Origin: an uncultured Gammaproteobacteria bacterium
GTDB lineage: Bacteria > Patescibacteriota > Microgenomatia > UM-FILTER-40-11
Assembly (NCBI GenBank): GCA_964452885.1
Contig: CAYVNK010000001.1
Span: forward strand, 1-42,923
DNA length: 42,923 bases
Direction: 5' to 3'
How positions within the stretch are numbered: position 1 is the stretch's first letter; every line of letters begins with the position of its first letter. This document shows, piece after piece, positions 4,683-23,384 of the stretch. Under the pieces are notes generated by a model. The model made no database searches and was not told the origin of the DNA. It saw only the letters and a program-made list of their open reading frames with translations. The position numbers and the translations under genes are program-made.

Positions 4683-5030
4683 TTAGGTAATTAGAAAAAT
4701 AATTCTTAAAAGGGTAATGGTGCCTAAAACCGAAAAGAGTAACGCAAAACTCTCTATAACGATAGGCAAAAAAGTTTCTTTTTTTTTGAAAAGTAATTTC
4801 CCGAGCTGCCAGTTAATTAAAAAAATGAGCAACGACAAAGCGGGAATTGAAAACAGCCACTCTCTTCCCGCCAGTTGTTCTTCGCCCCAGGGCCGGCTGT
4901 AAAAAAGGGGCACTTTTTCCGGCAGTAAATTTCTTTTCCAGAAAAGAGCGACGCCGTCAGCAATAAGCGAGGCAATATTTATCCGGTTAAGCAGGTTAAT
5001 AATTTTTTGTGGTTTTTCTTCTTCTCCCAT
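4683..5030 (-). CDS. Small hypothetical membrane protein
   Basis: 115-aa ORF packed tightly between two envelope genes on the same strand, with hydrophobic segments. No family recognised. Confidence 0.45.
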   Translation of the reverse strand: MGEEEKPQKIINLLNRINIASLIADGVALFWKRNLLPEKVPLFYSRPWGEEQLAGREWLFSIPALSLLIFLINWQLGKLLFKKKETFLPIVIESFALLFSVLGTITLLRIIFLIT

Positions 5031-6527
5031 TCAGATTCCTCTTTTAAGATAAACCGTGAAGTTATTCATACTTTTCATTTCCAGGTAATTATTTTGAATA
5101 AAAATTACCAGAGAAGGCAGACGTTTTATTTTTTCGTCCACAATAATCAGTTTTGGTTTATTCGCTTCAAGTTTAGTCAGGGTTTTTTCTTCCCGGTGCA
5201 GGTCCAGAATGTGGTAGGCGACCAAATAAGGGGTGGCGGGCAAACGGCGGGAAAGAGCATAAATTGACGGCTCATCCGCCCAAATAAAGATTTTTTCGTT
5301 TGGCAAAGAACTGGTATCGATAATTTGCCCCAGCCGATAAAGGGCGGGGACGTTTTTACCGAAATAGGAGAAATAGTCATTTTTCGTTTTTTGCCCTAAG
5401 GCGAATTGAGCGAAGTTTTGGTAGTAGGAAATCGTGGGATAATACCAGAAGCGGTAACGGTAAAGGGTTAATCCCAGTAAAAGAAAAAAGGAAGCGGCGA
5501 TAAGGGTGATTGTTTTCTTCTTTTCCAGGAAAATTAAACCGGCCAAAAGGGTTAAGGGCGGGATGATCTGAACCAGATAATGGGGGTAAGGCCGGCCGGA
5601 TAAAGTGGCCCCAAAAAGAGAGAAAAGTAACCAGATGAAAACAAAAAGGGCGGCCGGGAGCAGTTTTTTTCTTAGAATCCAGAAAAGGAATAGCAGGGAT
5701 AAGATTATCGTTCCTTTGATGGCCAAATCCGTCTTGAGAAGGGCAATTAAGGAAAAGACGTGCGAACCGGTTTTCCAGGAAGAAAGATAACCAAAAGTCT
5801 GAACAATGGCGGAGTTTAAAAATAGGCCTAAAATTCCCTTTAACCAAAAAAAGAGGCAGGTGAAGACAAAAGGGAGGAGATAACCCAAGACCAGGAGAAT
5901 TTCCTTCCGGCCGATTTTAATAATTTTCCCTCCGGTGAAGAAAAGAAGAAAAACCATTAAGGCCAGAAAATCAAAAAGGGCAGGTAGTTTTAAGAGAAAG
6001 CCCAAGCCCAAAAGCAGACCGGCAAGAAAATAAAGGAAGGGCTTTTCTTTTTGATTTGAGAAAACCAAAAACAGTCCCAGAACGGTAGGCAAGAGGATAA
6101 AAATTTCGGCGTTGGCAATATTGCCTTCCAAAAGCCGGAGGGTGGTTAAGGCGGCAAAAATTACCGTGACTGCTTTAGCCGGTATTTCCTTTCCGGAAAG
6201 CAATTTTTGACTCATTTGGTAGAAAAAGTAGATTGAGGCCAAGACCGAAGAGAGGAGCAGGAAGCGGAACCAAAAAATGGTGCCATTGACCGCGGCCGGC
6301 AGGAGATAGAAAAGCGGCGGCTTATTATCAAAAACATCACGATATAATAAAAATCCTTTTCTTAGAGCCAGACCAATGGTTAAATAGATTCCTTCATCGC
6401 CGTACCAATACGGCTCAAACAAGGAAGGCAGACGGAAAAGCAAAGTTACGAAAAGAACCAGAAGAATAAACCGATTTTGACGGAGAAAATGTTTCATCTC
6501 TCTAATTTTAGATTTAAAAGACGCCAT
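5031..6527 (-). CDS. GT-C fold (GT39/ArnT/PMT_2-like) lipid-carrier-dependent glycosyltransferase
   Basis: 498-aa polytopic protein. The N-terminal loop EPYWYGDEGIYLTIG is typical of ArnT/PMT-like enzymes. Confidence 0.65.
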   Translation of the reverse strand: MASFKSKIREMKHFLRQNRFILLVLFVTLLFRLPSLFEPYWYGDEGIYLTIGLALRKGFLLYRDVFDNKPPLFYLLPAAVNGTIFWFRFLLLSSVLASIYFFYQMSQKLLSGKEIPAKAVTVIFAALTTLRLLEGNIANAEIFILLPTVLGLFLVFSNQKEKPFLYFLAGLLLGLGFLLKLPALFDFLALMVFLLFFTGGKIIKIGRKEILLVLGYLLPFVFTCLFFWLKGILGLFLNSAIVQTFGYLSSWKTGSHVFSLIALLKTDLAIKGTIILSLLFLFWILRKKLLPAALFVFIWLLFSLFGATLSGRPYPHYLVQIIPPLTLLAGLIFLEKKKTITLIAASFFLLLGLTLYRYRFWYYPTISYYQNFAQFALGQKTKNDYFSYFGKNVPALYRLGQIIDTSSLPNEKIFIWADEPSIYALSRRLPATPYLVAYHILDLHREEKTLTKLEANKPKLIIVDEKIKRLPSLVIFIQNNYLEMKSMNNFTVYLKRGI

Positions 6528-11588: not shown

Positions 11589-12305
11589 ATGAGTGACCTG
11601 GATAATTTAAGAAAAGATTTAAGAAATTTTCAAAGACCCGGGAAGGCAAAGCTTTTACAAAGATTTTTTAAAACAGGAAAGGGAGAATACGGAGAAGGGG
11701 ATATTTTTTTAGGATTAATGACGGACAAGACCCGTAGTATCGCCAAAAAATATTTATCTTTAGATTTTAGTTTTATCAGTCAACTTCTTGCCTCGAAAAT
11801 TCATGAAGAAAGAGTAGTGGCAGTAATAATTTTAACTTCTCGGTTTAGAAAAGCGGATTTAGTCGGTAAAAAAGAAATTTACGATTTTTATTTTGAAAAT
11901 ATTTCCGGTATTAATAACTGGGATTTGGTTGACAGTTCAGCGCCGTTAATTGTCGGCGGATACCTTTATTTATCAAAAGAATCGCGAGATATACTTTACA
12001 AAATGGCCAGATCAAATAGTCTCTGGAAGAAGAGAATCGGCATTATGGCCACTTTTTATTTTGTCCAGGAAAAGGATTTTTCCGACGCCTTAAAAATCGC
12101 GGAAATACTGGTTAACGACAAGGAAGATTTAATTCAAAAAGCAGTCGGTTGGATGTTGCGGGAAATCGGGAACCGTGATCAAAAAATCGAGGAAGATTTT
12201 TTAAAGAAATATTTTAAAACGATGCCAAGAACCATGCTGCGATACGCAATCGAAAAATTTCCGGAAGAAAAAAGGAAAAGTTATTTAAACGGAAAAATTT
12301 GTTAA
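11589..12305 (+). CDS. DNA alkylation repair protein (AlkD-like HEAT-repeat glycosylase family)
   Basis: RFFKTGKGEYGEGDIFLGL..., NNWDLVD..., WMLREIG are signature stretches of the DNA_alkylation family. Confidence 0.75.
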   Translation: MSDLDNLRKDLRNFQRPGKAKLLQRFFKTGKGEYGEGDIFLGLMTDKTRSIAKKYLSLDFSFISQLLASKIHEERVVAVIILTSRFRKADLVGKKEIYDFYFENISGINNWDLVDSSAPLIVGGYLYLSKESRDILYKMARSNSLWKKRIGIMATFYFVQEKDFSDALKIAEILVNDKEDLIQKAVGWMLREIGNRDQKIEEDFLKKYFKTMPRTMLRYAIEKFPEEKRKSYLNGKIC

Positions 12306-13537
12306 ATCAATTTATAACCCTGGTTCTTAACGGTTTTGACCCGGCTTTCTATCTTTAATAAAACCAATTTTTTTCTTAATCTTTTAATTAACTGATCCAA
12401 AGTCCATTCGTTTACTTTCTCCGCTTTTTCCGGCCAAACAAAATTAATGATCTCTTCCCGCAGGATAATTTCACCCTCCCTGTCTTTCAGTATTTGGAAT
12501 AATTTTTTTTCTTTTAGGGTTAATTCCTGTCCGGTAGATTTTGTAAACTCTTTTTGTTTTTCAACAAAATCCTTAAAAAGGGGGTTAAAAATCTCTCCCT
12601 TACTGTCAACCAATCCGATTTGATAGAGAAAACTTTCTTGAGGAATTTTTTTATTTAACAAAGCTTCTTTTTCTTCAAGAGCCAGATAGTCCCAAAGCTC
12701 CAGATTTTGTTGCCAAATTTCCGGATCTTTTTTAAATAAATCATCGATATTTTTTAAGGAGTATTTATTATTTTCTAGAATTTGCAAAATCAGTAAACAA
12801 TATTGAGCATGTCCGCCGGAGTATTCAAAAGCAATTGTTTTAATTTTTTCCGAAAGCTTAACTTTTCTTGATCTTTCAAATTCTCCGATCACCGCCAGTA
12901 AGTCAACGAAAGTGCCGGGTTTTAAAAAGTATTTTTGTGAAAAAACTTCTAAATTTCCACCCCTGAGTGCGTCCGGGAATAGAAATTCCAAAGGTCGATT
13001 TAAGGTAAAGAAAAAATTTATTTTTTGTTTAGCGATATCTTTTAAAGATTGAAGATGGGCAAAAAATAAATAGGAAAATATCGAAAAAACCCGGTCAAAC
13101 CGGTTAAAAAGTAAAAAGACCAGAAAATCATTGCTGCAAAGTAGTCTAATTGCCCTTTTGGTATTGTCGGAAAAAGTGAAAGCGTCATTTGTTCGACCGG
13201 CGGATTAATAAAGATCATTTATTTCTTTACTGTTGGCTTGGTCGCTTACTCTTTTTAAAATAAGCTGCCAAAAATCCTTTTCTGTGAAATTAAACATATC
13301 GTTTAAATCAATTTCCAGTAAAAGAATTTTTTGGGATTTTAATTTCTTTTCCAAAAGTTCCGGATGAGTCAAAATATAACGTAAAACTCTGGCCAAACCG
13401 ACTCGGGGTAAACCAATCAGGGATAAAGGCTGAAACGAAGACAAAAAGCCGATGATTTTTGATATTTCCGATTTTCGGAAATCAGAGGAATATAAAGATT
13501 CATAAATAAGTGATTTCTGCATAATATCATTTGTCAT
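12302..13537 (-). pseudogene. ATPase-like N-domain plus OmpR/PhoB-type winged-helix regulator, interrupted by one in-frame TAA
   Basis: Track ORFs 13205..13537 and 12302..12991 are in the same frame. I translated 12992-13204 by hand and found no other stop, so a single TAA (13205-13207) splits a ~411-codon frame. The C-terminus LREEIINFVWPEKAEKVNEWTLDQLIKRLRKKL...VKNQGYKLI is a trans_reg_C winged helix. The N-terminal LIGLPRVGLARVL looks like a degenerate P-loop. Confidence 0.65.
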
Positions 13538-13791
13538 TTTATCATATTTTTGTCAGATTATTGTCAAGCAAAGTTATTTCCCGTCCCTAAAATAGAGATT
13601 GTTATTAATTTATTTAATTCAATGTTATTAAAACAAAAAGGAAAAAAGAATAAAAGGAAAATAAAAACCTGTGACTCCAGTAAAAAAACTGATTTGGATT
13701 CACAGGAAACATGGAAAATAATTGATTCACTTTGCTTTTGCGCAAGATAACTTAGTTTATTAATCAAATATTAATTAAATGAAAGGAATAA

Positions 13792-14550
13792 ATGATTGAA
13801 TCAAAAGAAAGGGTACCATTGATGTCAGAAGAAGAAATATTACTGAGAAACGGTCAAGAGTTTGAACAAGTAAAGCGAATTTTGGGTGAGGCAGAAAATT
13901 ATGGGGTCGATGTAAGCAAGTTAAAATATAGAGTTCGAACAAGCTTTGACGGCGGGGATGGTCCCGATGATATTTTTGGCGGCTTTTTTAGTGAACATGA
14001 TAATGTAATGCAAAAAATCCGTAGAAGCGCCAGAGCAGCAGTATTGGTTGCTAACGGAGCAGATGCCGCTGCCGCAGGACTTTGGACTTGGGATCATCAG
14101 GCCCAAAAAGAAAATTCTGAAATTATAGGAAACAGTAATTTCTTTGTTATTTGGAAAAACTTATTCGGTAAAACAGTCGCTTTGGGGGATAGCCAATATT
14201 TAATTAATAATCCCGTAATTGAAAAATTTAATTCTCTTTGCCGAACTCACAGAGGGTGGATGAGTATAGAATGTTGGAATCTGGGATGTTCGGGACTGTA
14301 TCTTGATAAAAATTTTCCACGTCATAAAGATGTTTGGCCGGAAAATTTAACCTTTTTATTCTCCGACGAAGTAGAACAACTAAAAACTAAGGGCAGTCTG
14401 GTGACTTATTATTATCATTCAATATACCAAGAAGCGGCAGAAGCATATTTTATGTACGGAGATGTTGATGGTGGAGAGATTTTGTTAAGTAGCGATGACA
14501 AAAGGAATCCAATTCTTCTTTATAAGATACGGGCGACATTAATGGATTAA
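13792..14550 (+). CDS. Hypothetical protein, no family recognised
   Basis: 252-aa ORF with a plausible RBS (aaaggaataaATG). It has a locally GC-richer, Gly/Asp/Ala-rich stretch (DGGDGPDDIFGGFF...ANGADAAAAGLWTW). No motif I can name. Confidence 0.5.
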   Translation: MIESKERVPLMSEEEILLRNGQEFEQVKRILGEAENYGVDVSKLKYRVRTSFDGGDGPDDIFGGFFSEHDNVMQKIRRSARAAVLVANGADAAAAGLWTWDHQAQKENSEIIGNSNFFVIWKNLFGKTVALGDSQYLINNPVIEKFNSLCRTHRGWMSIECWNLGCSGLYLDKNFPRHKDVWPENLTFLFSDEVEQLKTKGSLVTYYYHSIYQEAAEAYFMYGDVDGGEILLSSDDKRNPILLYKIRATLMD

Positions 14551-14561
14551 GCTTACTGATG

Positions 14562-14603
14562 TATAAGCAAAGCTTCAATCGCTTCGCGATATAAGCAAAG
14601 CTT
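14562..14603. repeat. 14-nt direct repeat pair flanking a small palindrome
   Basis: tataagcaaagctt occurs at 14562-14575 and again at 14590-14603. Between the copies lies atcgc-ttc-gcgat (a 5-bp stem). Confidence 0.85.
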
Positions 14604-14610
14604 GAAAAAG

Positions 14611-14635
14611 CACTCTGGGTTTTCAGCCCAGAGTG
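14611..14635 (+). terminator. Hairpin downstream of 13792..14550 (possible terminator)
   Basis: cactctggg-ttttcag-cccagagtg, a perfect 9-bp stem. The trailing sequence tcttataatt is only weakly U-rich. Confidence 0.4.
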
Positions 14636-14638
14636 TCT

Positions 14639-14710
14639 TATAATTCGCTCATGGCTGAGGAAAAGGTTTTAAACAAAGAGCAAGTTGAAGCAGTTGAACA
14701 TGGAGAGGAA
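14639..14710 (+). pseudogene. Ghost copy of the helicase-nuclease promoter -10 box and first ~20 codons
   Basis: The ghost reads tataat-tcgctc-ATG...MAEEKVLNKEQVEAVEHGEE. The real start at 15030 reads tataat-tagccc-ATG...MSNSSDKILNSEQVEAIEHGEG. Many of the differences are synonymous third-position changes. Similarity ends where the DUF3175 gene's stop (14711-14713) begins. Confidence 0.8.
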
Positions 14711-14998
14711 CTAATTTTTGGCTGGTTTCCTAAACAGATTCCTTAATTCAATTTTTGCCTGCTGGAGAATTGCCTTGCGGTTGACGGGTAAATTTTTCCC
14801 GGCGCGATTAATGTAAAAATTGAGCATGCTCATGGCAGATTGAAAAGGGGAAGCCTTTCGTCGCAGGGAATTTTCGGCCGACACTTTTAAGGAAACAGCA
14901 ATTTTTTCAGGGTCATTCCAGGCAAATACTCCTTCTTCTAGGTCAAGGGCGATACTGTGTTTGGTTACCTCGCCGGACCAGTTTTTCTTTTTTGGCAT
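14711..14998 (-). CDS. DUF3175 domain protein
   Basis: TKHSIALDLEEGVFAWNDPEKIA-SLK-SAE...RRKASPFQSAMSMLNFYINRAGKNLP matches the DUF3175 family pattern as I recall it. Confidence 0.65.
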   Translation of the reverse strand: MPKKKNWSGEVTKHSIALDLEEGVFAWNDPEKIAVSLKVSAENSLRRKASPFQSAMSMLNFYINRAGKNLPVNRKAILQQAKIELRNLFRKPAKN

Positions 14999-15041: not shown

Positions 15042-18000
15042 ATGTCTAATTCTTCGGATAAAATTCTTAATTCCGAGCAAGTTGAGGCAATTGAACACGG
15101 AGAGGGGCCGCTTTTGATTATTGCCGGAGCAGGAACTGGTAAGACAACCGTGGTTACCGAAAGAATTAAATATTTAATTACTAAAAGAGAGATTTCTCCT
15201 TCGGAAATTTTGGCCCTGACTTTTACGGAAAAAGCTTCTTTGGAAATGCAGGAGCGGGTGGATGTCGCTTTGCCTTTGGGCTATGCCAATATGTGGATTT
15301 CCACTTTTCATACTTTCGGCGATCGGATTTTGCGCAATGAGGTGGTCAATGTCGGCTTGGACCCACAGTATCATTTAATGACTCAGGCAGAAAGTATTCA
15401 ATTTTTGCGCAAAAACCTTTTTGAATTTGATTTAAATTATTTTCGGCCGCTTGGCAACCCCAATAAATTTGTCGAGGGGATGCTTAAGCATTTCAGTCGG
15501 CTTAAAGACGAAGACGTATCGCCCAATGAATATTTTCATTGGGTTCAAGGTCAAAGATCAAAAATCAAAAATCAAAATGATGAGATTGAAACTGAAGCAG
15601 AAGACGAGGTGAAAAAATACGAAGAATTGGCCAAAGCTTTTAAGGTTTATGAAGAGTTGAAAGTAAAAGAAGGGCTGATGGATTTTGAGGATTTAATTGG
15701 CCACGTTTTAACGGTTTTTAGGAAAAGGCCGAGTATTCTTAAAACTTATCAAAAAAAGTTCAAATACGTTCTGGTGGACGAGTTTCAGGATACGAACTTC
15801 AGCCAGTATGAAATGATTAAACTGCTGTCGTCTCCACCCAAGAGTAATTTAACTGTCGTGGGGGACGATAACCAATGCTTGCCGGGTGAAACAGAAATTT
15901 CTCTTCTTGGGGGCAAAAAAAGAATTGATCAAATAAAAGTAGGTGATGTGATACTTACGGCGGTGGGGAAAGGTCACACCTCTGGATCTAAAGTTAGTCG
16001 GGTTTTTAAAAACAAAAAAAAGGCGAGATTGTTAACTTTTACTTTAGAAACGGGAGAGAAAATTACGGTTACAGATAATCATAAAGTGTTTTGTTTTATT
16101 CCTTCTAAAGAAAATAAGAAAGATTTTCATTTTGTTTACTTAATGAAACACCAAGATTACGGTTGGCGGTTGGGTGTAACCAATGATTTAGCCTCCAGGT
16201 TAAGATTGGAAGCCCACGCAGATGGTATTTTATCCATCGGGTCTTATAAAACTGATCAAGAGGCTCGGTATTACGAAGCACTTTTTTCTGCAAGATATGG
16301 ACTTCCGACAGTTCCTTTCAGCTCTCACCCCAAGCAAGCAATTACCGGGGATTATCTTAAAAAACCTTTTGTTGAATTAAAAACCAAGGAAAGGGTTAAG
16401 AAATTGGCGATTGATTTGGGAATTGAGATAAATTCTTTTGGTGTTACAAGAAATGGGGTAGTTAGGGGATCTAGCGATCGGGTAATAGTAAATTTTCAGA
16501 TGTGTTACCGAAATTATCGGAGTAAAACTCACAAAGAAGGGTTTGTTGGCAACCCCGCCATTAGTCATTTGGTTTACATAGAAACATCTTCACAAAAAAC
16601 AATTTCTATCTTAGAAAATGCCGGCCATAAGTTAGCCAAAGCCAAAAAAGGAAAGAGGTTTAGATATACAACTGCCAACATTGCGGAAGCGTGGCAAATG
16701 GCCGATAACCTAGTTATTTTAACCGGAGGAATTTTAAACAAAAAATTTTCCTTAGGAACAAAAAATTATCAACATAAGCCAGCAACTATTGTACCGGCGG
16801 GTAATGTTTGGCCGGGAAATTATTTCCCAGTATTGGAAGGGAAAAGAATAGTTTATAAAAAAATTATTGGCAGAACCGAAGAAGTAAAAGAACTAGTGGT
16901 GTATGATCTGGAAATTGAAAAAACTCACAATTTTATTGCCAATGGGATACCGGTTCACAATTCAATCTATAAATTTAGGGGCGCGGCCATTTCCAATATT
17001 CTGCAGTTTAAAAAAGATTATCCTGAGGCCAAGTGTGTGGTTTTAAACCAAAACTATCGTTCGACTCAAACGATTTTGGATGCTTCTTACAAACTGATTA
17101 AGAATAACGACCCGGACACTTTGGAAGCAAGCTTGGGTATCAGCAAAAAGTTGGAAAAAGTAAGAGAAGTGGAGGAAACACCGGTCGGATTTCTTTGGTC
17201 GGACCGGGTGGAAAACGAAGCCGAGGCAGTGGCCAAGAAAATTTTTGATCTTAAAAACGAGAACGATGCTTTATCCTGGAAAGATTTTGCCGTTTTGGTG
17301 CGTGCCAATAATCATGTCGATCCTTTTATCAAAGCCTTTGTCCGCCGGGGAGCTCCTTATCAATTTTTGGGGCCGGGGATACTTTTCCGCCAGCCAGAAG
17401 TTAAAGATTTAATCGCTTATCTTTCGGTTTTATCTAATTTTGAGGATTCGGTGGCCATGTATCGGCTTTTGGCCATGGATTTCTGGGGGATTTCCGGTCG
17501 GGATTTGGCTTTAATCATCAATTACGGTCGGAAAAATAATTTGTCTATTTTTGAAGCCGGTGAGAAAGTCTTAAAAGACGAATCGGTGGTCATTGCCGAT
17601 AAAACCAAAGAAACATTAAAAAAGTTGATGGAAATGATTTATCGGCATTTGAATTTGGTAAAAAAAGAAACTGCCGGCCAGATTCTTTATTTCTTTTTGG
17701 AAGACAGCGGGCTTTTAAAGCAGTTAACCAATTACAAAACGGCGGCGGACGAGAGAAAGGTGCAAAATATCGCCAAGTTTTTTGACAAACTGAAGACTTA
17801 TGAGGTTGAACACGAAGATGCTTCGGTTTATGCGGTGGTCGATTTTGTTAATCTTTCTTTGGAATTAGGGGAGTCGCCATTGGCGAGCGACTTGGATTGG
17901 TTTGGGAACGACGCGGTTAATATTTTAACGGTGCATTCGGCCAAAGGCCTGGAATTTCCCGTGGTTTTTTTGGTGAATTTGGTTGATCAGCGTTTTCCGA

Positions 18001-19097
18001 CGAATGAGCGGCGGGAGCAGATTCCTATTCCTGAAGAATTGATTAAAGAAGTTTTGCCGCAAGGAGACTTTCATTTGGAAGAAGAAAGACGGCTTTTTTA
18101 TGTGGGCATGACCAGAGCCAGAGACAGACTTTTTTTGACAGGAGCAAATTTTTACGGTGAGGGAAAAAGGGAAAAGAAAGTTTCGGTTTTTGTGAAAGAA
18201 GCGTTAGGCAATATCAAAAATCAAATATCAAATATCAAAAATAAGGAGAACCAATTGTCAATTTTTGATTTTAAACCAACAACTGAAGTTAAACTTCCAA
18301 CTTCCAGTTTCCAACTTCCAACTTCGGTTCCTATCTCCTATTTGTCCTATTCCCAAATTGAGACCTTTAATACCTGTCCTTTGCAATACAAATACCGTTA
18401 TCTTTTAAGAATTCCCACTCCGCCGTCGGCGGCCGCTTCTTTCGGTGAGACAATTCATGAAACAATGAAAGATTTTTATCAAAGAGCAATTGCGGGGCAA
18501 AAGCCCACCAAAGAAGATTTAGTGAAAATTCTTTCCGAAAATTGGAGCCCCTCGGGTTACCCGTCAAAAGCCCATGAAGAAAAATATAAAAAAGAAGGGG
18601 AGAAAATTTTGAGTGAATTTTTTGAAAAATCTTTTAATCCCAAAAATGTACCTTTGACCTTAGAGCAGGTTTTCAGCGTTAAAATCAGTCCGACTTTAAA
18701 AGTTGGCGGTAGGATTGACCGGATTGATCGCGTCAAACGCGATTCGGGTAGAGAAGAAATAGAAATTATTGATTACAAGACCGGCAAATCACCGACCAAA
18801 AAAGATGTCGAAGAAGATTTACAACTAACACTTTATGCTTTGGCGGCCACCGACGGCACTTTAACTTATATGGGCATTTTTAAAAAGACGCCCCAGCCGG
18901 AAGAAGTAAAAATTTCTTTTTATTTTTTTGATAATCAGGAAAAAATTTCCAGCTTTAGGAAAAAAGAAGATTTTCCAAAAATAAAAGAAGAGCTGATTAA
19001 AAAAGCGGAGGAGATAAGCCGGTCGACTTTTTCGCCGACTCCGGGCAAGCTTTGTGATTTTTGTGAGTTTAAATTAATCTGTGAAGCCTGGAGCTAA
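15042..19097 (+). CDS. UvrD/PcrA-type SF1 helicase fused to a C-terminal PD-(D/E)XK (Cas4/AddB-type, 4-Cys) nuclease; intein-containing precursor
   Basis: GAGTGKT (Walker A), VLVDEFQDTN (motif II), VGDDNQ|intein|SIYKFRGA (motif III), NYRST, and TVHSAKGLEFPVVFL...YVGMTRAR. The nuclease part has C-PLQYKYRY, GRIDRIDR, EIIDYKTGK, QLTLYALA and the terminal CDFCEFKLIC. The precursor is 1351 aa, which gives 989 aa after removal of the 362-aa intein. Confidence 0.9.
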   Translation: MSNSSDKILNSEQVEAIEHGEGPLLIIAGAGTGKTTVVTERIKYLITKREISPSEILALTFTEKASLEMQERVDVALPLGYANMWISTFHTFGDRILRNEVVNVGLDPQYHLMTQAESIQFLRKNLFEFDLNYFRPLGNPNKFVEGMLKHFSRLKDEDVSPNEYFHWVQGQRSKIKNQNDEIETEAEDEVKKYEELAKAFKVYEELKVKEGLMDFEDLIGHVLTVFRKRPSILKTYQKKFKYVLVDEFQDTNFSQYEMIKLLSSPPKSNLTVVGDDNQCLPGETEISLLGGKKRIDQIKVGDVILTAVGKGHTSGSKVSRVFKNKKKARLLTFTLETGEKITVTDNHKVFCFIPSKENKKDFHFVYLMKHQDYGWRLGVTNDLASRLRLEAHADGILSIGSYKTDQEARYYEALFSARYGLPTVPFSSHPKQAITGDYLKKPFVELKTKERVKKLAIDLGIEINSFGVTRNGVVRGSSDRVIVNFQMCYRNYRSKTHKEGFVGNPAISHLVYIETSSQKTISILENAGHKLAKAKKGKRFRYTTANIAEAWQMADNLVILTGGILNKKFSLGTKNYQHKPATIVPAGNVWPGNYFPVLEGKRIVYKKIIGRTEEVKELVVYDLEIEKTHNFIANGIPVHNSIYKFRGAAISNILQFKKDYPEAKCVVLNQNYRSTQTILDASYKLIKNNDPDTLEASLGISKKLEKVREVEETPVGFLWSDRVENEAEAVAKKIFDLKNENDALSWKDFAVLVRANNHVDPFIKAFVRRGAPYQFLGPGILFRQPEVKDLIAYLSVLSNFEDSVAMYRLLAMDFWGISGRDLALIINYGRKNNLSIFEAGEKVLKDESVVIADKTKETLKKLMEMIYRHLNLVKKETAGQILYFFLEDSGLLKQLTNYKTAADERKVQNIAKFFDKLKTYEVEHEDASVYAVVDFVNLSLELGESPLASDLDWFGNDAVNILTVHSAKGLEFPVVFLVNLVDQRFPTNERREQIPIPEELIKEVLPQGDFHLEEERRLFYVGMTRARDRLFLTGANFYGEGKREKKVSVFVKEALGNIKNQISNIKNKENQLSIFDFKPTTEVKLPTSSFQLPTSVPISYLSYSQIETFNTCPLQYKYRYLLRIPTPPSAAASFGETIHETMKDFYQRAIAGQKPTKEDLVKILSENWSPSGYPSKAHEEKYKKEGEKILSEFFEKSFNPKNVPLTLEQVFSVKISPTLKVGGRIDRIDRVKRDSGREEIEIIDYKTGKSPTKKDVEEDLQLTLYALAATDGTLTYMGIFKKTPQPEEVKISFYFFDNQEKISSFRKKEDFPKIKEELIKKAEEISRSTFSPTPGKLCDFCEFKLICEAWS
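15550..15577. repeat. Heptanucleotide tandem array (ATCAAAA-type x4)
   Basis: gtcaaag atcaaaa atcaaaa atcaaaa, in frame in the helicase (RSKIKNQN). Confidence 0.9.
15876..16961 (+). mobile_element. Intein (362 aa) inserted in helicase motif III, with an endonuclease-size insert
   Basis: Block A is CLPGETEISLLGG, directly after VGDDNQ. Block B is ITVTDNH (TxxH). Blocks F/G are ELVVYDLEIEKTHNFIANGIPVHN, followed by the +1 Ser of SIYKFRGA. The extein junction restores the canonical DDxQSIYxFRGA motif. Confidence 0.9.
18213..18240. repeat. Heptanucleotide tandem array (ATCAAAW x4)
   Basis: atcaaaa atcaaat atcaaat atcaaaa. It encodes NIKNQISNIKN in the helicase-nuclease linker. Confidence 0.9.
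18294..18328. repeat. Heptanucleotide tandem array (CTTCCAA x5)
   Basis: cttccaa cttccag tttccaa cttccaa cttcggt. It encodes LPTSSFQLPTS in the same linker. Confidence 0.9.
19050..19097 (+). repeat. R1: functional 3' terminus of the helicase-nuclease (LCDFCEFKLICEAWS*)
   Basis: ctt tgt gat ttt tgt gag ttt aaa tta atc tgt gaa gcc tgg agc taa. This is the first of four copies. Confidence 0.9.
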
Positions 19098-19626
19098 ATG
19101 ATTATTGCGGTCGGTTCTAAAAATCCAACTAAGGTCAATGTGGTTAAAAAAGTTTTTACTAAAGGTTTTGGAAATTGTACTGTTATAGGTGTCAAGGTGC
19201 CTTCAGGTGTATCAGATATGCCAATGTGTTTTGATGAGTCATTCAAGGGAGCAAAAAACAGAGCTAAAAACGCTATTAAAAAAAATAAAAAAGGCTGATT
19301 TTGCCGTTGGTTTGGAAGGTGGGTTTGAGGAAACAAAAGAAGGAACTTTTTTGTGCGGTTATGCGGCAGTTATAGATAAAAAAGAAAATTTTGGAATTGG
19401 CGGGAGTTCGAGAGTTTTGGTTCCTGAAAGAATAGTGGCAGAAGTTAAAAAAGGAAAAGAACTAGGTGAGGTAATGGATAAGCTTAGGGGACAAAAAAAT
19501 ACAAAACAACATGATGGAGCAGTTGGCTATTTTACCAGAAATTTGATTCCTAGAACTAAATGGTTTGAAACAACACTTATTTGTGCCCTATCCCATTTTA
19601 TGAAAAAAGAGTTGTACAAAGAATGA
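19098..19626 (+). pseudogene. YjjX/DUF84-like non-canonical purine NTP phosphatase, frameshifted in an A-rich run
   Basis: 19098..19298 reads MIIAVGSKNPTKV...PSGVSDMP...GAKNRAKNAIKK and then stops. The +1 frame (track ORF 19189..19626) continues KKADFAVGLEGG...DGAVGYFT, completing the family pattern. The shift lies within attaaaaaaaataaaaaaggctga (~19275-19298). The ATG abuts the helicase stop (taaATG). Confidence 0.7.
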
Positions 19627-19634
19627 GTTTTTAA

Positions 19635-19676
19635 CTTTGTGAGTTTTGTGAATTTAAGTTACTCTGTGAGGCATAG
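19635..19676 (+). repeat. R2: diverged ghost of the helicase 3' terminus (LCEFCEFKLLCEA*)
   Basis: ctt tgt gag ttt tgt gaa ttt aag tta ctc tgt gag gca tag. There are 7 differences from R1 over the 39 nt from the first Cys codon, 4 of them synonymous, and Trp has become TAG. Confidence 0.85.
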
Positions 19677-19698
19677 ATTTAAAATGTAATGTGACCTA

Positions 19699-19726
19699 TT
19701 GACTTTAATTATAGGTATGTTATAAC
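19699..19726 (+). promoter_or_regulatory. Putative sigma70-type promoter of the orphan two-gene cassette
   Basis: TTGACT (19699-19704), a 16-nt spacer, then TATAAC (19721-19726). The ATG lies 34 nt downstream at 19761. Confidence 0.4.
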
Positions 19727-19760
19727 TTGCATTAATAAGAAGATAATTTTTTAAATAAAA

Positions 19761-20081
19761 ATGGTTGAGAGAACTCTTTCTAAAACTACAGAAACTTCAG
19801 GAGAGATTGGTATTAATAGCAGATTGATAAGGATATCTTTCCAAGATTCACGGCCTGTAGAATATTGTCAATATAGTCCTTCGCAAACTGAAATTCTACT
19901 TGAACAAATTACCACATCGTTCGGAACAGAATTGGGAGAAGCTTATTTGAATCCAGACAATGGCACGAAATTGGTTAGACTTTCCAGGCCGGTTGTTTTA
20001 CAAATAGAAGCACAAGAGAAAGAAGTTTACTTGCGAGGCAATACACAAGATTTTCTCCGTTTTGTCGGGATCAAGGAGTAA
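19761..20081 (+). CDS. Hypothetical protein (106 aa), cassette B gene 1
   Basis: Clean ORF behind its own promoter-like element. No recognisable motif. Confidence 0.45.
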   Translation: MVERTLSKTTETSGEIGINSRLIRISFQDSRPVEYCQYSPSQTEILLEQITTSFGTELGEAYLNPDNGTKLVRLSRPVVLQIEAQEKEVYLRGNTQDFLRFVGIKE

Positions 20082-20143
20082 TTGAAAAAATTTTTGAAGA
20101 AAACAATTCTCGAGTAAGAGGTAAAAACCCCGAGCGGACTTTA

Positions 20144-20650
20144 ATGAAGATAGCAGAAAGAATCAAATCAGAAAATGGAGGCGTCTGGTCCACAGTCAAG
20201 GAAGTGACCGACCCACGTTTTATTCCAGATATTCCACTCGCACGATGGCGAAAAGAGTTTTACTTTGCTGTGTATAAGTTGGACGGAAATGAAAGTGTAC
20301 CGGAAGATGTTCTTCCGTTTACAATTCACGAAGAAACAGAATTTGAGGGAAAATTACCAGATGTTCACATTACTTTTAAGAGAGAACCGTTGTTTATGAG
20401 TGGTATTGGATTTGGATTAGTAAGGACAGATTTACAACGACCCGACAGCTTTTGGTTTAGTTTTTCTAGAACTAGCTACGAACACGCAGTAGCTACTTCA
20501 TCCGCTCGCGGTTTGCACCCCTCAAGTATATTAAAGGAAAATCCGAAATTGGGGATAAGGGGCGATGTCTCTCCAACCGAACCAAGAGAAAGGGTAATGG
20601 CTTTCATTCAGGCGTATTTAAGAAAAATGTGTGTAGGTACAACCCTTTAG
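20144..20650 (+). CDS. Hypothetical protein (168 aa), cassette B gene 2
   Basis: Clean ORF 62 nt downstream of gene 1 on the same strand. It looks less AT-rich by eye than its surroundings. No recognisable motif. Confidence 0.45.
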   Translation: MKIAERIKSENGGVWSTVKEVTDPRFIPDIPLARWRKEFYFAVYKLDGNESVPEDVLPFTIHEETEFEGKLPDVHITFKREPLFMSGIGFGLVRTDLQRPDSFWFSFSRTSYEHAVATSSARGLHPSSILKENPKLGIRGDVSPTEPRERVMAFIQAYLRKMCVGTTL

Positions 20651-20687
20651 GGTTTGTTAAACCACTTGAAACTTATTACATAAACAG

Positions 20688-20732
20688 TGCGATTTTTGTA
20701 AATTTAAATTACTCGGGGAAGCGTGGATCTAA
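20688..20732 (+). repeat. R3: diverged ghost of the helicase 3' terminus (CDFCKFKLLGEAWI*)
   Basis: tgc gat ttt tgt aaa ttt aaa tta ctc ggg gaa gcg tgg atc taa. There are 8 differences from R1 over 45 nt and the third Cys is lost. It shares the tta-ctc codons with R2. Confidence 0.8.
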
Positions 20733-20739
20733 CCAGTTA

Positions 20740-20768
20740 TTGACAAAATTCTGAATTTCTGATATTCT
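20740..20768 (+). promoter_or_regulatory. Putative promoter of vapBC (leaderless geometry)
   Basis: TTGACA (20740-20745), a 17-nt spacer, then TATTCT (20763-20768), then gaaaat, then ATG at 20775. Confidence 0.5.
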
Positions 20769-20774
20769 GAAAAT

Positions 20775-21050
20775 ATGAACGGAGATTATATTTCAACTAC
20801 TGTAATTCGTCAAAGAGGACAATTAACACTTCCTAAAAAACTAAGAACTGAAAATAGTTGGCTTGCTGAAGGGATGGTGGTTGCTGTTTTGTCTTCTGTA
20901 CAAAAAGAAGTGAAGATTATTCCTTATAAAGAATCTTCCAAAAAGACCGACTGGAAAGACATTTGGGAGAAAATAAAACTTTCTAGAACTTTTTTGGGTC
21001 AAAGAGGAAATTTATCTCAATTTGTTGTTGAAGACCGATCTGCACATTAA
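20775..21050 (+). CDS. vapB: AbrB/SpoVT-MazE-type antitoxin (VapB-like)
   Basis: IRQRGQLTLPKKLR... looped-hinge-helix motif, 91 aa, immediately upstream of a PIN gene. Confidence 0.75.
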   Translation: MNGDYISTTVIRQRGQLTLPKKLRTENSWLAEGMVVAVLSSVQKEVKIIPYKESSKKTDWKDIWEKIKLSRTFLGQRGNLSQFVVEDRSAH

Positions 21051-21057
21051 TATATGT

Positions 21058-21486
21058 ATGGCAAAAATTAAAAAATTGATTATAGATTCTTCGGTTGGAG
21101 TTAAATGGCTTAACGGCCAAGATGAAAAATATTTGGATCAGGCGGATAAAATTCTCCAAGATTGTGAGAAAATGAAGGTTGCTTTATATGCTCCGGAATT
21201 GGCCAAGTATGAAATTGGCAATGCTATTCGTTATAAGGGATTGGATGAATCTTTTGCTAAAATTTGTTTATCTACCTTGTATTCCTTGCCGATTACTTTT
21301 GTTTCTCTAGAAGAAAAAGATGCCCTTGAAACTTTGGTAATTGCCCAAAAAGAAAACATAACTTATTATGATGCTGTTTTTGTAAATTTGGCCGAGAAAA
21401 TCGGAGGCATCCTAGTAACTGATAATCCTAAACATCAAAGTAAAATAAAAGGGATAAAAGTTGTTAGCTTGAAAAATTATCAATAG
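21058..21486 (+). CDS. vapC: PIN-domain toxin (VapC-like)
   Basis: The ATG at 21058 gives MAKIKKLIIDSSVGVKWL (first acidic residue). Later come PELAKYEIGNA, YYDAVFVNLAE and VTDN. The track ORF start at 21022 overlaps vapB and is less likely. Confidence 0.75.
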   Translation: MAKIKKLIIDSSVGVKWLNGQDEKYLDQADKILQDCEKMKVALYAPELAKYEIGNAIRYKGLDESFAKICLSTLYSLPITFVSLEEKDALETLVIAQKENITYYDAVFVNLAEKIGGILVTDNPKHQSKIKGIKVVSLKNYQ

Positions 21487-21494
21487 CCAGGTAC

Positions 21495-21539
21495 TGCGAC
21501 TTTTGTGAGTTTAAATTAATTTGTGAAGCCTGGAGCTAA
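21495..21539 (+). repeat. R4: near-identical ghost of the helicase 3' terminus (CDFCEFKLICEAWS*)
   Basis: tgc gac ttt tgt gag ttt aaa tta att tgt gaa gcc tgg agc taa. It has 3 of 45 differences from R1, all synonymous third positions. Its TAA (21537-21539) overlaps the stop (21536-21538, minus strand) of the convergent FemAB gene. Confidence 0.9.
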
Positions 21540-22375
21540 AGGATATTTAGAGGAGATTTAAAGGATGATAGAGGTAAGGGAAATTCGATTTCTTTTCCTC
21601 TAAATCCCTCCTTAAAGTGAGTAAAACCAAGCCAGGAACGGTTTTTCGGAAAACGCTCGTCATAAATGCCTTCAAAATCAAAGTTTTCGCACCCTTTCTT
21701 TTTGGCCAACTTAATTGCTTCCCAAACAATCAAAGTTGGAGCGAGTAATTTTTTCCCTTTCTCAGTCGTCGCCGCTTGCCAGTAGTAAGCGGTTTTATCG
21801 CAAAACAGTAACAAGACGCCGGCCACAATTTTTTTCTCATATTCTGCCACTAAAATAATGGCTTTTTCTTTAAATGCGTCACAAGTTAGTTTAATTTCTT
21901 TTCTGGTACTAAAGGGCAAAATAAACTTTTTTAACAAATACTCTTTTTTAAGCTGATAAAAATCCTCGTAAGAACCCTCTTTAATTAAAAGATTATTTTT
22001 TTCGGCGATTCTGATATCCCGCCTTTTGTTTTTGGAAAACGAATCGAAAATTTCCTGTTCTGAACATTTAATGTCTTTGATGAGCGTTTTGGTGGGAATA
22101 AAGGGAGATTTAAGAGGACGGTAATCAGAGGGATAGCTGTTAACTGTTAGCTTATAATCGCTTGTAGGTTCAATAATGACCCGAAAGGCGTGATATTTCT
22201 TGGCAAGTTTTTCAATTTCGGAAAATGGAATTGGGAATTGGATTCTTTGAATTTTGATTAAAGTACCCAGTAAGGGAATTTTTCTGATAAAAACTTGTTC
22301 CCCGCCAAGTTTTTCTATTTGCCAGCCAAGACTTTTTAAATACTCCCCATATTCTAAAGATTGTCTTAAATCCAT
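21536..22375 (-). CDS. FemAB-family peptidoglycan interpeptide-bridge aminoacyltransferase
   Basis: AYYWQAATTEKGKKLLAPTLIVWEAIKLAKKKGCENFDFEGI...GFTHFKEGF is typical of the FemAB / lipid II peptidyltransferase family. Confidence 0.75.
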   Translation of the reverse strand: MDLRQSLEYGEYLKSLGWQIEKLGGEQVFIRKIPLLGTLIKIQRIQFPIPFSEIEKLAKKYHAFRVIIEPTSDYKLTVNSYPSDYRPLKSPFIPTKTLIKDIKCSEQEIFDSFSKNKRRDIRIAEKNNLLIKEGSYEDFYQLKKEYLLKKFILPFSTRKEIKLTCDAFKEKAIILVAEYEKKIVAGVLLLFCDKTAYYWQAATTEKGKKLLAPTLIVWEAIKLAKKKGCENFDFEGIYDERFPKNRSWLGFTHFKEGFRGKEIEFPLPLSSFKSPLNIL

Positions 22376-22379
22376 ATTT

Positions 22380-23384
22380 TTAAAACTTACTTTTTAAGTG
22401 AAGAAATTTCCAGCGGAGAGAATCACTGATTTTATAGAGTTGATAAAGGCCAGGATTAATCACTAAATCGTAAGTACCCAAAAATTCTGTCAATTTTGGC
22501 GAAAAGCCTTCTTTAAATTTATGAAAGCCAAAGTAGGGATTATCTGGCGAGGGATTGGGTCCAATATCGCCCCATAAATCAAAGCTAGTACAACCCATCT
22601 TCTTGCCGAAGCGGATTGCCTCCCACATCAGTAAAGTAGGTGCCATCAGTTCGCGGTTTTCGCGGGTTGAGGCGCCGTAAGGATAGTAAAGCGTTTTGTT
22701 AAAAACAAAAAGCAAGAAAGCAGAAAGAGTTTTACCTTCGTGCGCGGCCGTTAATAAATGAGAAATGCCGGCATCTTTTAAAATTTCCCATTGTTTCTGG
22801 TGATATTTTTCATTATGGGCGTAAAAGCCCTGACGTTTGGTTGTCTCAAATAGTAGTTTCAGGTATTCGACAAAGGCCTTCTCGGAATTATCTTCCCGAA
22901 CCGAAACGCCGTGTTTTTCTGCCAAATGAATGTTATAACGTGTTTTTGGTTTGAAACTTTTTAAAAGTTCTTCCTCGATTTTTGTAAGATCAATGACTGA
23001 GGTATATTTTGTAAATAGGGGCTTACCTTTTATTAGCCCTAATGTTTCGGATTTCGAATTTCGGATTTCGGATTTTTCTGTATTTGGTTCGATTTTAATA
23101 AAAATGGCTTTTTTTTCTTGACCGATTTCCTTTAACTTGTTGATTACTTCTTTACTGGGCAGGGAACTTTTAGGTAAATAGCCAATAGAAAAAGGTAAAT
23201 GGGGAATTTGGTGAAAAGTAATTTGAAAAACTTGCATTAGTTTTGCTTTTTGGAAAATTCCCAGTCTAACCACGGCTACTCCCTGGTCTTTTCTGAATTC
23301 TCCCCACTGCCAAGATTGCAAAGGGTGAGTTGCCAGTTCGTTATAGTTTTCGGGCTGCTCTTTTAGTATTTTAATTTCTTCCAT
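22380..23384 (-). CDS. FemAB-family peptidoglycan interpeptide-bridge aminoacyltransferase (paralogue)
   Basis: HPLQSWQWGEF..., LYYPYGASTRENRELMAPTLLMWEAIRFGKKMGCTSFDLWG...GFHKFKEGF. Confidence 0.8.
   Translation of the reverse strand: MEEIKILKEQPENYNELATHPLQSWQWGEFRKDQGVAVVRLGIFQKAKLMQVFQITFHQIPHLPFSIGYLPKSSLPSKEVINKLKEIGQEKKAIFIKIEPNTEKSEIRNSKSETLGLIKGKPLFTKYTSVIDLTKIEEELLKSFKPKTRYNIHLAEKHGVSVREDNSEKAFVEYLKLLFETTKRQGFYAHNEKYHQKQWEILKDAGISHLLTAAHEGKTLSAFLLFVFNKTLYYPYGASTRENRELMAPTLLMWEAIRFGKKMGCTSFDLWGDIGPNPSPDNPYFGFHKFKEGFSPKLTEFLGTYDLVINPGLYQLYKISDSLRWKFLHLKSKF
23045..23072. repeat. Heptanucleotide tandem array (TTTCGGA x4)
   Basis: tttcgga tttcgaa tttcgga tttcgga. It encodes SEIRNSKSE on the minus strand inside the FemAB paralogue. 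Confidence 0.9.

Follow-up and report, generated by a model that had tools for sequence, protein, structure and literature searches.

Repeated ends of a helicase–nuclease gene delimit small gene cassettes in Patescibacteria

Here, we describe a string of small gene cassettes behind a DNA-repair helicase–nuclease gene of an uncultured Patescibacteriota bacterium (Candidate Phyla Radiation, CPR). The analyzed DNA is a stretch of 42,923 nt on contig CAYVNK010000001.1, hereafter called the window. The 3′ end of the gene, which encodes a conserved cysteine motif, is present in four copies, and these copies delimit three cassettes (A, B, and C). The three downstream copies, which we call ghost ends, resemble the functional ends of orthologous helicase genes and are followed by the genes that stand behind those ends in relatives. 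Ghost ends of this helicase family are found in about 10 lineages. The array may have been built by displacement of the gene end through general or illegitimate recombination.

Results

Four copies of the helicase gene end

The helicase–nuclease gene (15042–19097, plus strand) encodes a protein of 1351 residues, a fusion of a UvrD-type helicase and a PD-(D/E)XK nuclease domain that has a CxxCx5C motif at its C terminus. A repeat search of the window found four direct 50-nt copies of one family at 19053, 19638, 20688, and 21495, and the latter three are 76, 76, and 92% identical to the first, respectively. The repeat unit corresponds to the last ~48 nt, or ~15 codons, of the helicase open reading frame (ORF). 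All four copies lie on the plus strand. R1 (19050–19097) is the real 3′ end of the gene (LCDFCEFKLICEAWS and a stop codon), and the helicase ORF is intact through it. R2 (19635–19682) reads LCEFCEFKLLCEA, a stop, Ile, and a second stop, and is decayed by a TGG-to-TAG change; its tail at 19682, GCATAGATTTAA, is a decayed GCATGGAGTTAA. A preliminary description of this DNA had placed the end of R2 at 19676, but the TAG found there is the changed TGG codon inside the ghost, and the copy reaches 19682. R3 (20685–20732) reads QCDFCKFKLLGEAWI and a stop, with the last Cys changed to Gly. R4 (approximately 21487–21539; CDFCEFKLICEAWS and a stop) begins right after the vapC stop codon of cassette C, and its 5′ end is a decayed CCAGGTAC, matching CCGGGCAAGCTT. 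The copies begin a few nucleotides 5′ of the first Cys codon, and a CTT codon is common to R1 and R2. The stop codon of R4 (21537–21539) overlaps that of a convergent femAB gene (21536–21538, minus strand), as had been noted in the preliminary description.

The 18-nt core TTTTGTGARTTTAARTTA occurs in the window only at the four copies, which match the 18-nt pattern with 0–1 mismatches. When 3 mismatches are allowed, 1.4 occurrences of the degenerate pattern are expected in the window by chance. With the last 28 residues of the helicase as a tblastn query, only the three ghosts were matched (E = 1e-8 to 7e-6). The repeat search, the core search, and tblastn thus agree with the earlier claim that the helicase 3′ end is present in four copies that delimit three cassettes. 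R1 and R4 differ at 3 of 45 nt, and the aligned copies confirm that all three are synonymous third positions (TGT/TGC, GAT/GAC, and ATC/ATT). This pair is the most alike among the four copies, with 3 differences versus 7–9 in the other pairs. Our own alignment of R2 with R1 also reproduced the 7 reported differences, in which synonymous and nonsynonymous changes are mixed. A phylogeny of the 45-nt ends was discarded, because so few positions do not suffice to tell where the ends come from.

At repeats, strain variants can be collapsed or chained in metagenome assemblies, and a coverage break or chimeric assembly at the copies had been named as a concern. A look-up of the exact FemAB protein retrieved ten contigs, which were assembled independently from different Joint Genome Institute (JGI) and European Nucleotide Archive (ENA) samples. 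All of them carry the same array and are 99.95–100% identical over 18501–22500, including a frameshift in cassette A. A chimeric assembly is therefore excluded, and the array is real.

Ghost ends and their neighbors in relatives

Species-representative genomes and metagenome contigs were scanned with the nuclease domain, which gave 86 loci (L001–L086), and later protein-guided look-ups added L097, L099, L103, and L106/L107. R3 together with the following promoter and the vapBC pair of cassette C corresponds to a real helicase end followed by vapBC in L001, L025, and L106. R2 with cassette B corresponds to the real end with B in L097, where the order is helicase, real end, cassette B, ghost, vapBC, and ghost. 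The two loci are colinear over 19633–21491 of the window with 71% nucleotide identity, and R2 is therefore taken as a former real end that preceded B. The counterpart of R1 with the nucleoside triphosphatase (NTPase) gene of cassette A is found in L099, where the real end precedes an intact NTPase gene. At the distal end of L099, only GAAGTGTGGAGTTAA is left, representing the last five codons of the old end and overlapping the femAB stop. R4 with femAB corresponds to the junction of empty sites. In L054, a ghost shares 88% identity with the real end of L058 and 74% with that of L054 itself (our count), and the helicase 3′ regions of the two loci are ~60% identical. These matches of ghosts with their neighbors (L001, L025, L106, L097, and L099) and the L054/L058 comparison bear out the earlier suggestion that the ghosts are ends of orthologous helicase genes and not slippage products.

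In four lineages, the vapC stop codon is immediately followed by a ghost that starts 9–11 nt before the first Cys codon, and the right vapBC junction (vapC stop then GGCAAxCA-TGx) is the same in these four. An altered stop codon in L106 lets vapC read into the ghost. Tails of the AWN/AWI type close the end before vapBC in the window, L001, and L025/L097, and an AWS tail closes the ghost after it in the window, L025, and L106; the exceptions are the real end of L106 (AWS) and the decayed ghost of L001. The two tail types, AWN-stop and AWS-stop, thus appear to track the cassette rather than the genome.

Loss of a cassette in a same-strain pair

L097 and L025 belong to the same strain and come from different samples. 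Their helicase flanks are identical up to the tail of the end, and their vapBC flanks are identical except for two positions in the ghost head. L025 is without the 1064-bp cassette B. Its single end is a chimera of the head of the L097 real end and the tail of the L097 ghost, and the exchange falls within 17 nt over which the two copies agree completely (TTTAAGTTAATCTGTGA). The order of B, ghost, and vapBC is common to the much more distant window lineage, and the difference is therefore most simply read as a precise deletion in L025 via recombination of one repeat with the other. It could also be due to a recent insertion in L097.

Gene turnover at the helicase–femAB junction

The convergent FemAB-family gene (21536–22375, minus strand; Pfam FemAB, 3.5e-16) is the conserved right border of the variable region. 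In L003/L011, L007, L008, and L010, the stop codons of the helicase and femAB genes overlap or abut, and nothing lies between them. The empty sites that the preliminary description had proposed to look for therefore exist, and they support its reading of the R4/femAB tail-to-tail junction as the ancestral state. Different cargo between repeated ends, which was also to be looked for, was found in L054, L068, and L080, for example. Cargo was assigned from the helicase–femAB interval or, where the contig stops short of femAB, from the sequence directly after the helicase end. Single different genes without any ghost stand at the junction in L013 (DUF2284-like), L009 (Nudix), and L012 (glucosamine-6-P isomerase-like), and an AbrB/PIN pair without a ghost is found in L037. 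The helicase end is followed by the NTPase gene and a 206-residue ORF in L099 and by vapBC and a 243-residue ORF in L106. Among more distant loci, the cargo directly after the end consists of RHH/PIN and AbrB/PIN pairs in L068 and a 2-phosphosulpholactate phosphatase gene in L080. In L054, a SET-domain gene and a PIN pair follow the end. Because of the empty states and the differing single genes, we conclude that, in this patescibacterial group, the helicase/femAB junction is a hotspot of gene turnover.

Among the 68 loci with an identifiable real end, same-strand downstream ghosts were found in the window, L001, L016, L017, L025, L054, L068, and L080. The protein-guided look-ups added those of L097, L099 (a 15-nt remnant), L103, and L106/L107. 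The cargo of the ghost arrays is mostly toxin–antitoxin pairs, i.e., vapBC of the window type in four further lineages as well as RHH/PIN, AbrB/PIN, and PIN pairs; the remainder includes the phosphatase gene of L080, the SET-domain gene of L054, and orphan ORFs. As a specificity control, 680 ORFs with 150 residues or more were taken from all loci, and the 4 kb downstream of each was searched for its last 18 residues. The helicase alone had downstream ghosts (8 loci), and the one other match was due to tandem femAB paralogs.

Several arrays have peculiarities of their own. In two related species, the ghost lies only 34–36 nt past the real end with no gene between (L016, 3887–3966; L017, 1040–1107), which is probably a remnant after imprecise deletion of a cassette. 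A tandem duplication was rejected as its origin, as the sequence past the ghost does not repeat the spacer. Approximately 110 nt past the ghost of L001 (5900–6010, minus strand), a sequence encoding SSKSPLTIL and a stop resembles the C terminus of the window FemAB, SFKSPLNIL and a stop (a weak match, E = 7.6), and a second, weaker copy of this kind adjoins it; this may be a remnant of an earlier femAB junction. The L054 array contains two diverged paralogs (41% amino acid identity) of an ORF of unknown function, one directly after the real end (2214–2546) and the other further down, past the last ghost (5027–5215). An ortholog of this ORF lies 1.1 kb downstream of the helicase gene in L058. 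L058 was considered as the reciprocal of L054 and rejected, because no ghost is found upstream of the shared ORF there. A Paceibacterota contig fetched for its NTPase (L102) carries a bAvd and reverse-transcriptase pair resembling a diversity-generating retroelement (1586–2968), a few kb upstream of its own helicase–nuclease gene.

Recombination machinery and structure of the site

No integrase, transposase, or tyrosine/serine recombinase domain was detected in the ORFs of at least 90 residues scanned across the 43-kb window, and no integrase or transposase was found in the cassettes of the window, L054, L068, L080, and L097. The repeat search of the window gave no terminal inverted repeats, and the window scans gave no casposase. 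The four copies with their flanks (81 nt) were folded as single-stranded DNA of both strands, and no hairpin was found (z-scores of −0.67 to +1.09 versus shuffles). The domain scans and the folding are in line with the preliminary description, which had reported no integrase, transposase, or attC-like hairpin. Neither the inverted-repeat search nor the folds contained the dyad of a dif-like site (28 bp with two partly palindromic 11-bp arms and a 6-bp spacer). A single arm-like stretch matching a dif consensus at 9 of 11 positions by eye had no second arm and was treated as chance. A degenerate 35-nt motif of the end gave 0 matches in viral contigs, and a viral or plasmid-borne attP was rejected on this basis.

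Third codon positions vary freely among the real ends. There is therefore no DNA core beyond the coding constraint, and it is the protein motif that is conserved, not a DNA site. The 5′ boundaries of the ghosts are at about −30 in L080, −24 and −9 in L068, −9 to −11 after vapBC, and −3 in R2; the boundary is inside CxxC in L016/L017, and only the last 15 nt remain in L099. The L099 remnant does not include the 17-nt crossover interval of L097/L025. These scattered boundaries do not readily fit one fixed crossover position, although the ghosts may have been trimmed later. A strict reading of the integron- or att-array-like architecture noted earlier is not supported, in view of the scattered boundaries, the lack of a DNA core, and the promoters that cassettes B and C have of their own.

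Contents of the three cassettes

Cassette A (19098–19626, plus strand) contains an inosine/xanthosine triphosphatase gene (NTPase_I-T/YjjX; Pfam PF01931), whose start overlaps the helicase stop codon (TAAATG). Relative to the intact ortholog in L099 (83% amino acid identity), a +1 insertion is present in an A-run near 19274–19283, and this frameshift is identical in all ten independent assemblies. The family and the start codon assigned in the preliminary description are correct, but the gene is not intact, as the Pfam match is split over two ORF pieces by the frameshift. Judged from the sequence, the gene would be either a fixed pseudogene or a slippery site.

Cassette B (19761–20650, plus strand) consists of two orphan ORFs, B1 (19761–20081, 106 residues) and B2 (20144–20650, 168 residues), neither of which has a Pfam or NCBIfam match. 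B2 has a single nonidentical homolog among 5.8 billion proteins (P0002, 66% identity), which is located in the L097 array. A promoter-like element, TTGACT-16-TATAAC (19699–19726, plus strand), precedes the ORFs, as had been described; it was read from the sequence and was not flagged by the consensus scan. The homologous position of L097 has TTGACT-17-TATAAT.

Cassette C (20775–21486, plus strand) consists of a 91-residue antitoxin-like ORF (20775–21050) and, 7 nt further downstream, a PIN-domain VapC gene (21058–21486; Pfam PIN, 9e-6, above the Pfam cut-off). The small ORF has no Pfam or NCBIfam match. A PIN-domain toxin gene preceded by a small antitoxin gene in one predicted operon is the arrangement of a VapBC module, to which cassette C is assigned on this ground. 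Orthologous pairs are found in six other loci (L001, L025, L097, L103, L104, and L106). The reported vapBC promoter was found by the promoter scan as TTGACA-17-TATTCT with a TG extension (20740–20768, plus strand); L001, L103, and L106 have kept this promoter-like site, and part of it is deleted in L025/L097 and L104. Over 20738–20772 and the homologous positions of the six loci, TTGACAAAATTCTGAATTTCTGATATTCTGAAAAT is better conserved than the vapBC coding sequence. The region contains three TTCTGA repeats and may be the operator of the antitoxin. In L103 (180–990), vapBC with the same promoter is located away from the helicase gene, behind an unrelated upstream gene, and is accompanied by a left-end fragment, GCGTGG, and a decayed right ghost. 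The same vapBC family and promoter are also found in a different context without a recognizable ghost (L104, 4640–5440; L104/L105).

Helicase, intein, and flanking genes

Pfam matches of the helicase–nuclease are UvrD-helicase (4.6e-70), UvrD_C (1.7e-56), PDDEXK_1 (1.6e-43), and Intein_splicing (6e-15). The intein (Hint/Intein_splicing; 15876–16961, plus strand) interrupts the helicase motif DDNQ/SIYKF, and its limits were set by comparing the junctions DDNQ/C...HN/SIYKF with intein-less orthologs. It is absent from the orthologs in L001, L003, L007, and L008, and an intein at the same site is found in L002 and L106. The presence of the intein is thus patchy and independent of the cassette arrays. 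The preliminary description had suggested that breaks made by the resident intein endonuclease might stimulate recombination. However, arrays also follow intein-less helicases in L001, L016, L068, and L080, and the intein is therefore not needed for the arrays. In 2 of the 10 assemblies of the window locus (L091 and L093), a G-to-A change at 19091 (TGG to TGA) ends the helicase two residues early in CEA and a stop, the same tail as that of ghost R2. The last two residues of the helicase are probably dispensable.

The order helicase, femAB, femAB, and PcrA-like helicase is kept in L003, L008, L010, and L013, and in the nearer relatives, the two femAB genes and the PcrA-like helicase gene are on the strand opposite to the helicase–nuclease gene. 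On the 5′ side of the helicase gene (12305–14998), the window has a Trans_reg_C regulator, a 110-residue ORF, a 252-residue ORF, and a DUF3175 gene. All four are absent from L106, in which a DNA-alkylation-repair gene abuts the helicase gene. This region looks like a second variable spot.

Discussion

Proposed mechanism

Here, we propose that the array arose through displacement of the helicase gene end by general or illegitimate recombination, combined with repeat-mediated deletion and without a dedicated recombinase at the locus. We hold this explanation with moderate confidence. Incoming DNA from a relative would carry the helicase 3′ region and the gene downstream of the helicase in that relative. 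The first crossover would be anchored in the conserved helicase gene or its end, and the other join would be made by short homology or illegitimately, close to the resident end. The incoming end would then become the working gene end, and the old end with its old neighbor would be pushed distally as a ghost. Alternatively, the incoming fragment may be anchored on the femAB side. Repeated events of this kind would build the array. Loss would occur by recombination between two direct-repeat ends, which removes a cassette exactly and leaves a chimeric but intact gene end, as observed in L097/L025. Such excision could release circles that re-enter any orthologous end by a single crossover. The ghosts may be short (15–75 nt) because longer repeats would be deleted quickly. 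The general recombination enzymes of the cell and DNA uptake from relatives are presumably used, and we infer both the entry route of the cassettes and its direction. The preliminary description had offered two mechanisms, of which recombination anchored in the helicase gene fits the data better and serial site-specific insertion fits worse.

Several observations weigh against this proposal. No insertion event has been caught, and the sole before-and-after pair, L097/L025, is read most easily as a deletion. From homology-facilitated illegitimate recombination, one would expect ghosts that vary widely in length and are scattered over many genes. The ghosts instead cluster within ~75 nt of the end of one gene, for which the survivorship of short repeats is our own explanation only. 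The 680 control ORFs all come from helicase neighborhoods and not from whole genomes. Where its frequency has been measured, homology-facilitated illegitimate recombination proved rare (PMC5361080). The identical right junction of vapBC could equally be a defined attachment boundary. Finally, simple serial addition at the proximal side does not predict R1 and R4 as the most similar pair; their near-identity calls for gene conversion or a closely related donor.

Alternative explanations

An integron-like system, or one resembling integrative mobile elements exploiting Xer (IMEX), would use the helicase end as the attachment site of a trans-encoded site-specific recombinase, e.g., a Xer-type tyrosine recombinase. 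Small circular cassettes would be inserted and excised, each with a replacement gene end. This explanation accounts for the small and tightly bounded cassettes with direct flanking repeats of ~45–55 nt, for the vapBC right junction shared by four lineages, and for the specificity for one gene among the 680 ORFs tested. The varying position of vapBC, which adjoins the helicase in L001, L025, and L106 and takes the third place in the window, would also follow, as would the remnants of both flanking ends that vapBC of L103 keeps beside an unrelated upstream gene. Moreover, site-specific excision would be expected to leave the reciprocal structure that is seen between L097 and L025. On the other hand, the 43-kb window and all cassettes are devoid of a recombinase, and the site has no inverted-repeat or hairpin structure and no nucleotide core beyond the codon constraint across lineages. 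The ghost boundaries and the one mapped crossover interval have no point in common, and junction genes occur without any ghost in L009, L012, L013, and L037. We regard a dedicated site-specific system as unlikely, though worth keeping in view.

Less probable still is a long target-site duplication, in which breaks staggered by ~45–55 bp would have produced both copies from the resident end, with divergence afterward. The left copy, with its stop codon, does lead directly into the cargo, and the cargo directly into the right copy. In L097, the copies around the proximal cassette differ at 6 positions, versus 11 between the distal ghost and the real end (our count). However, the most alike copies of the window are the outermost ones, R1 and R4, and not adjacent pairs, and the L054 ghost is closer to the real end of another lineage than to its own. 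No transposase, casposase, or terminal inverted repeats are present, and to our knowledge, no enzyme makes duplications of this length, except for the CRISPR repeat duplication by Cas1–Cas2. These points leave the explanation improbable.

Misassembly of the helicase ends of several strains, or chance similarity in AT-rich DNA of the kind that the 1.4 expected matches of the loosened pattern might suggest, is already refuted for practical purposes by the ten independent assemblies, the related arrays in at least 9 other lineages, and the 0–1 mismatches and tblastn E values of the copies.

Comparison with known systems

The closest likeness is to C-terminal displacement in the Rhs/CdiA orphan modules and in the effector–immunity arrays of the Vibrio cholerae type VI secretion system (T6SS) (Kirchberger et al. 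2017, PMC5361080, citing Jackson et al. 2009 and Poole et al. 2011). For these arrays, the proposed mechanism combines an anchor by homology in the conserved part with an illegitimate join and involves no integrase (PMC5361080). As in the helicase array, several displaced 3′ fragments stand in a row behind a full-length gene, and each still has its former neighbor behind it; the fragments match functional ends in other strains, and no integrase is present. The helicase locus differs in that its anchor is a housekeeping DNA-repair helicase–nuclease and not a toxin. Unlike in polymorphic toxins, the displaced piece is a conserved stretch of ~15 codons with the Fe-S Cys motif, no variable toxin domain is involved, and the protein is not diversified. 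The cargo (toxin–antitoxin pairs, the NTPase, and orphan ORFs) is unrelated to the anchor gene, with no cognate immunity gene, and precise repeat-mediated loss is documented at the helicase locus by L097/L025.

Elements that insert into gene ends offer a second comparison. e14 and phage 21 integrate in icd. Two papers describe the integration of SGI1 in the trmE 3′ end, where the element carries a copy of that end as a short repeat (PMC6531882 and PMC8409611), and this is a precedent for a site-specific origin of the helicase repeats. Direct repeats of a gene 3′ end, a gene that is intact after insertion, and relatives with empty sites are shared with SGI1/trmE and e14/icd, and the exclusively synonymous R1/R4 differences add to the likeness. 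Elements of this type are larger and have their own integrase next to the att site, whereas the helicase-locus cassettes are 0.5–1 kb without an integrase and form a tandem array with boundaries that are not fixed.

Integron arrays, or attC clusters lacking an integrase, share the tandem small cassettes, the recurring site of ~50 nt, and the toxin–antitoxin modules as cargo. The helicase locus has no IntI and no attC secondary structure, and its recurring site is a coding gene end. Integron cassettes are mostly promoterless, whereas two of the three helicase-locus cassettes (B and C) have their own promoter-like sites. With neither a transposase or casposase nor terminal inverted repeats, the locus does not qualify as a transposon or casposon. 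In integration hotspots between core genes, the content is exchanged by homologous recombination in the flanks. The helicase–femAB segment is similar in that it varies in nearly every relative and includes empty states. Flank exchange is scarless, whereas part of the events at the helicase locus leaves ghosts of the gene end, from which the order of events can be read and which are new substrates for recombination. Full-text literature searches found no description of the helicase locus or of gene-end ghosts in Patescibacteria. What is new here is a probable displacement array at a housekeeping gene, in which small cassettes are strung together as in an integron but without an integrase, and which is met again in about ten lineages.

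Significance

It is conceivable, if rather doubtful, that the repeated ends are working parts of a cassette system that either needs no recombinase or uses one supplied in trans. If this is true, a gene flanked by two helicase ends would loop out as a circle, which after uptake by a relative would re-enter the orthologous helicase end. Protein constraint would keep the helicase end competent for recombination across distant lineages. The Patescibacteria would then possess an integron-like platform for gene sharing, with the coding end of an Fe-S nuclease domain as its attachment site, and this platform would preferentially spread toxin–antitoxin modules.

If gene-end displacement is the correct explanation, a process known until now from toxin loci is also at work at a housekeeping gene, and integron-like arrays, mainly of toxin–antitoxin modules, can be built without an integrase at the locus. 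The last 15 codons of the helicase, when found downstream of the gene itself, provide a search key for mapping such events across metagenomes and for circular intermediates. Patescibacteria have tiny genomes with few recognizable mobile elements, and their gene gain and loss are poorly understood. The helicase locus is a readable record of both: each ghost marks one past event and a former neighbor, and one strain pair (L097/L025) shows precise loss through the repeats.

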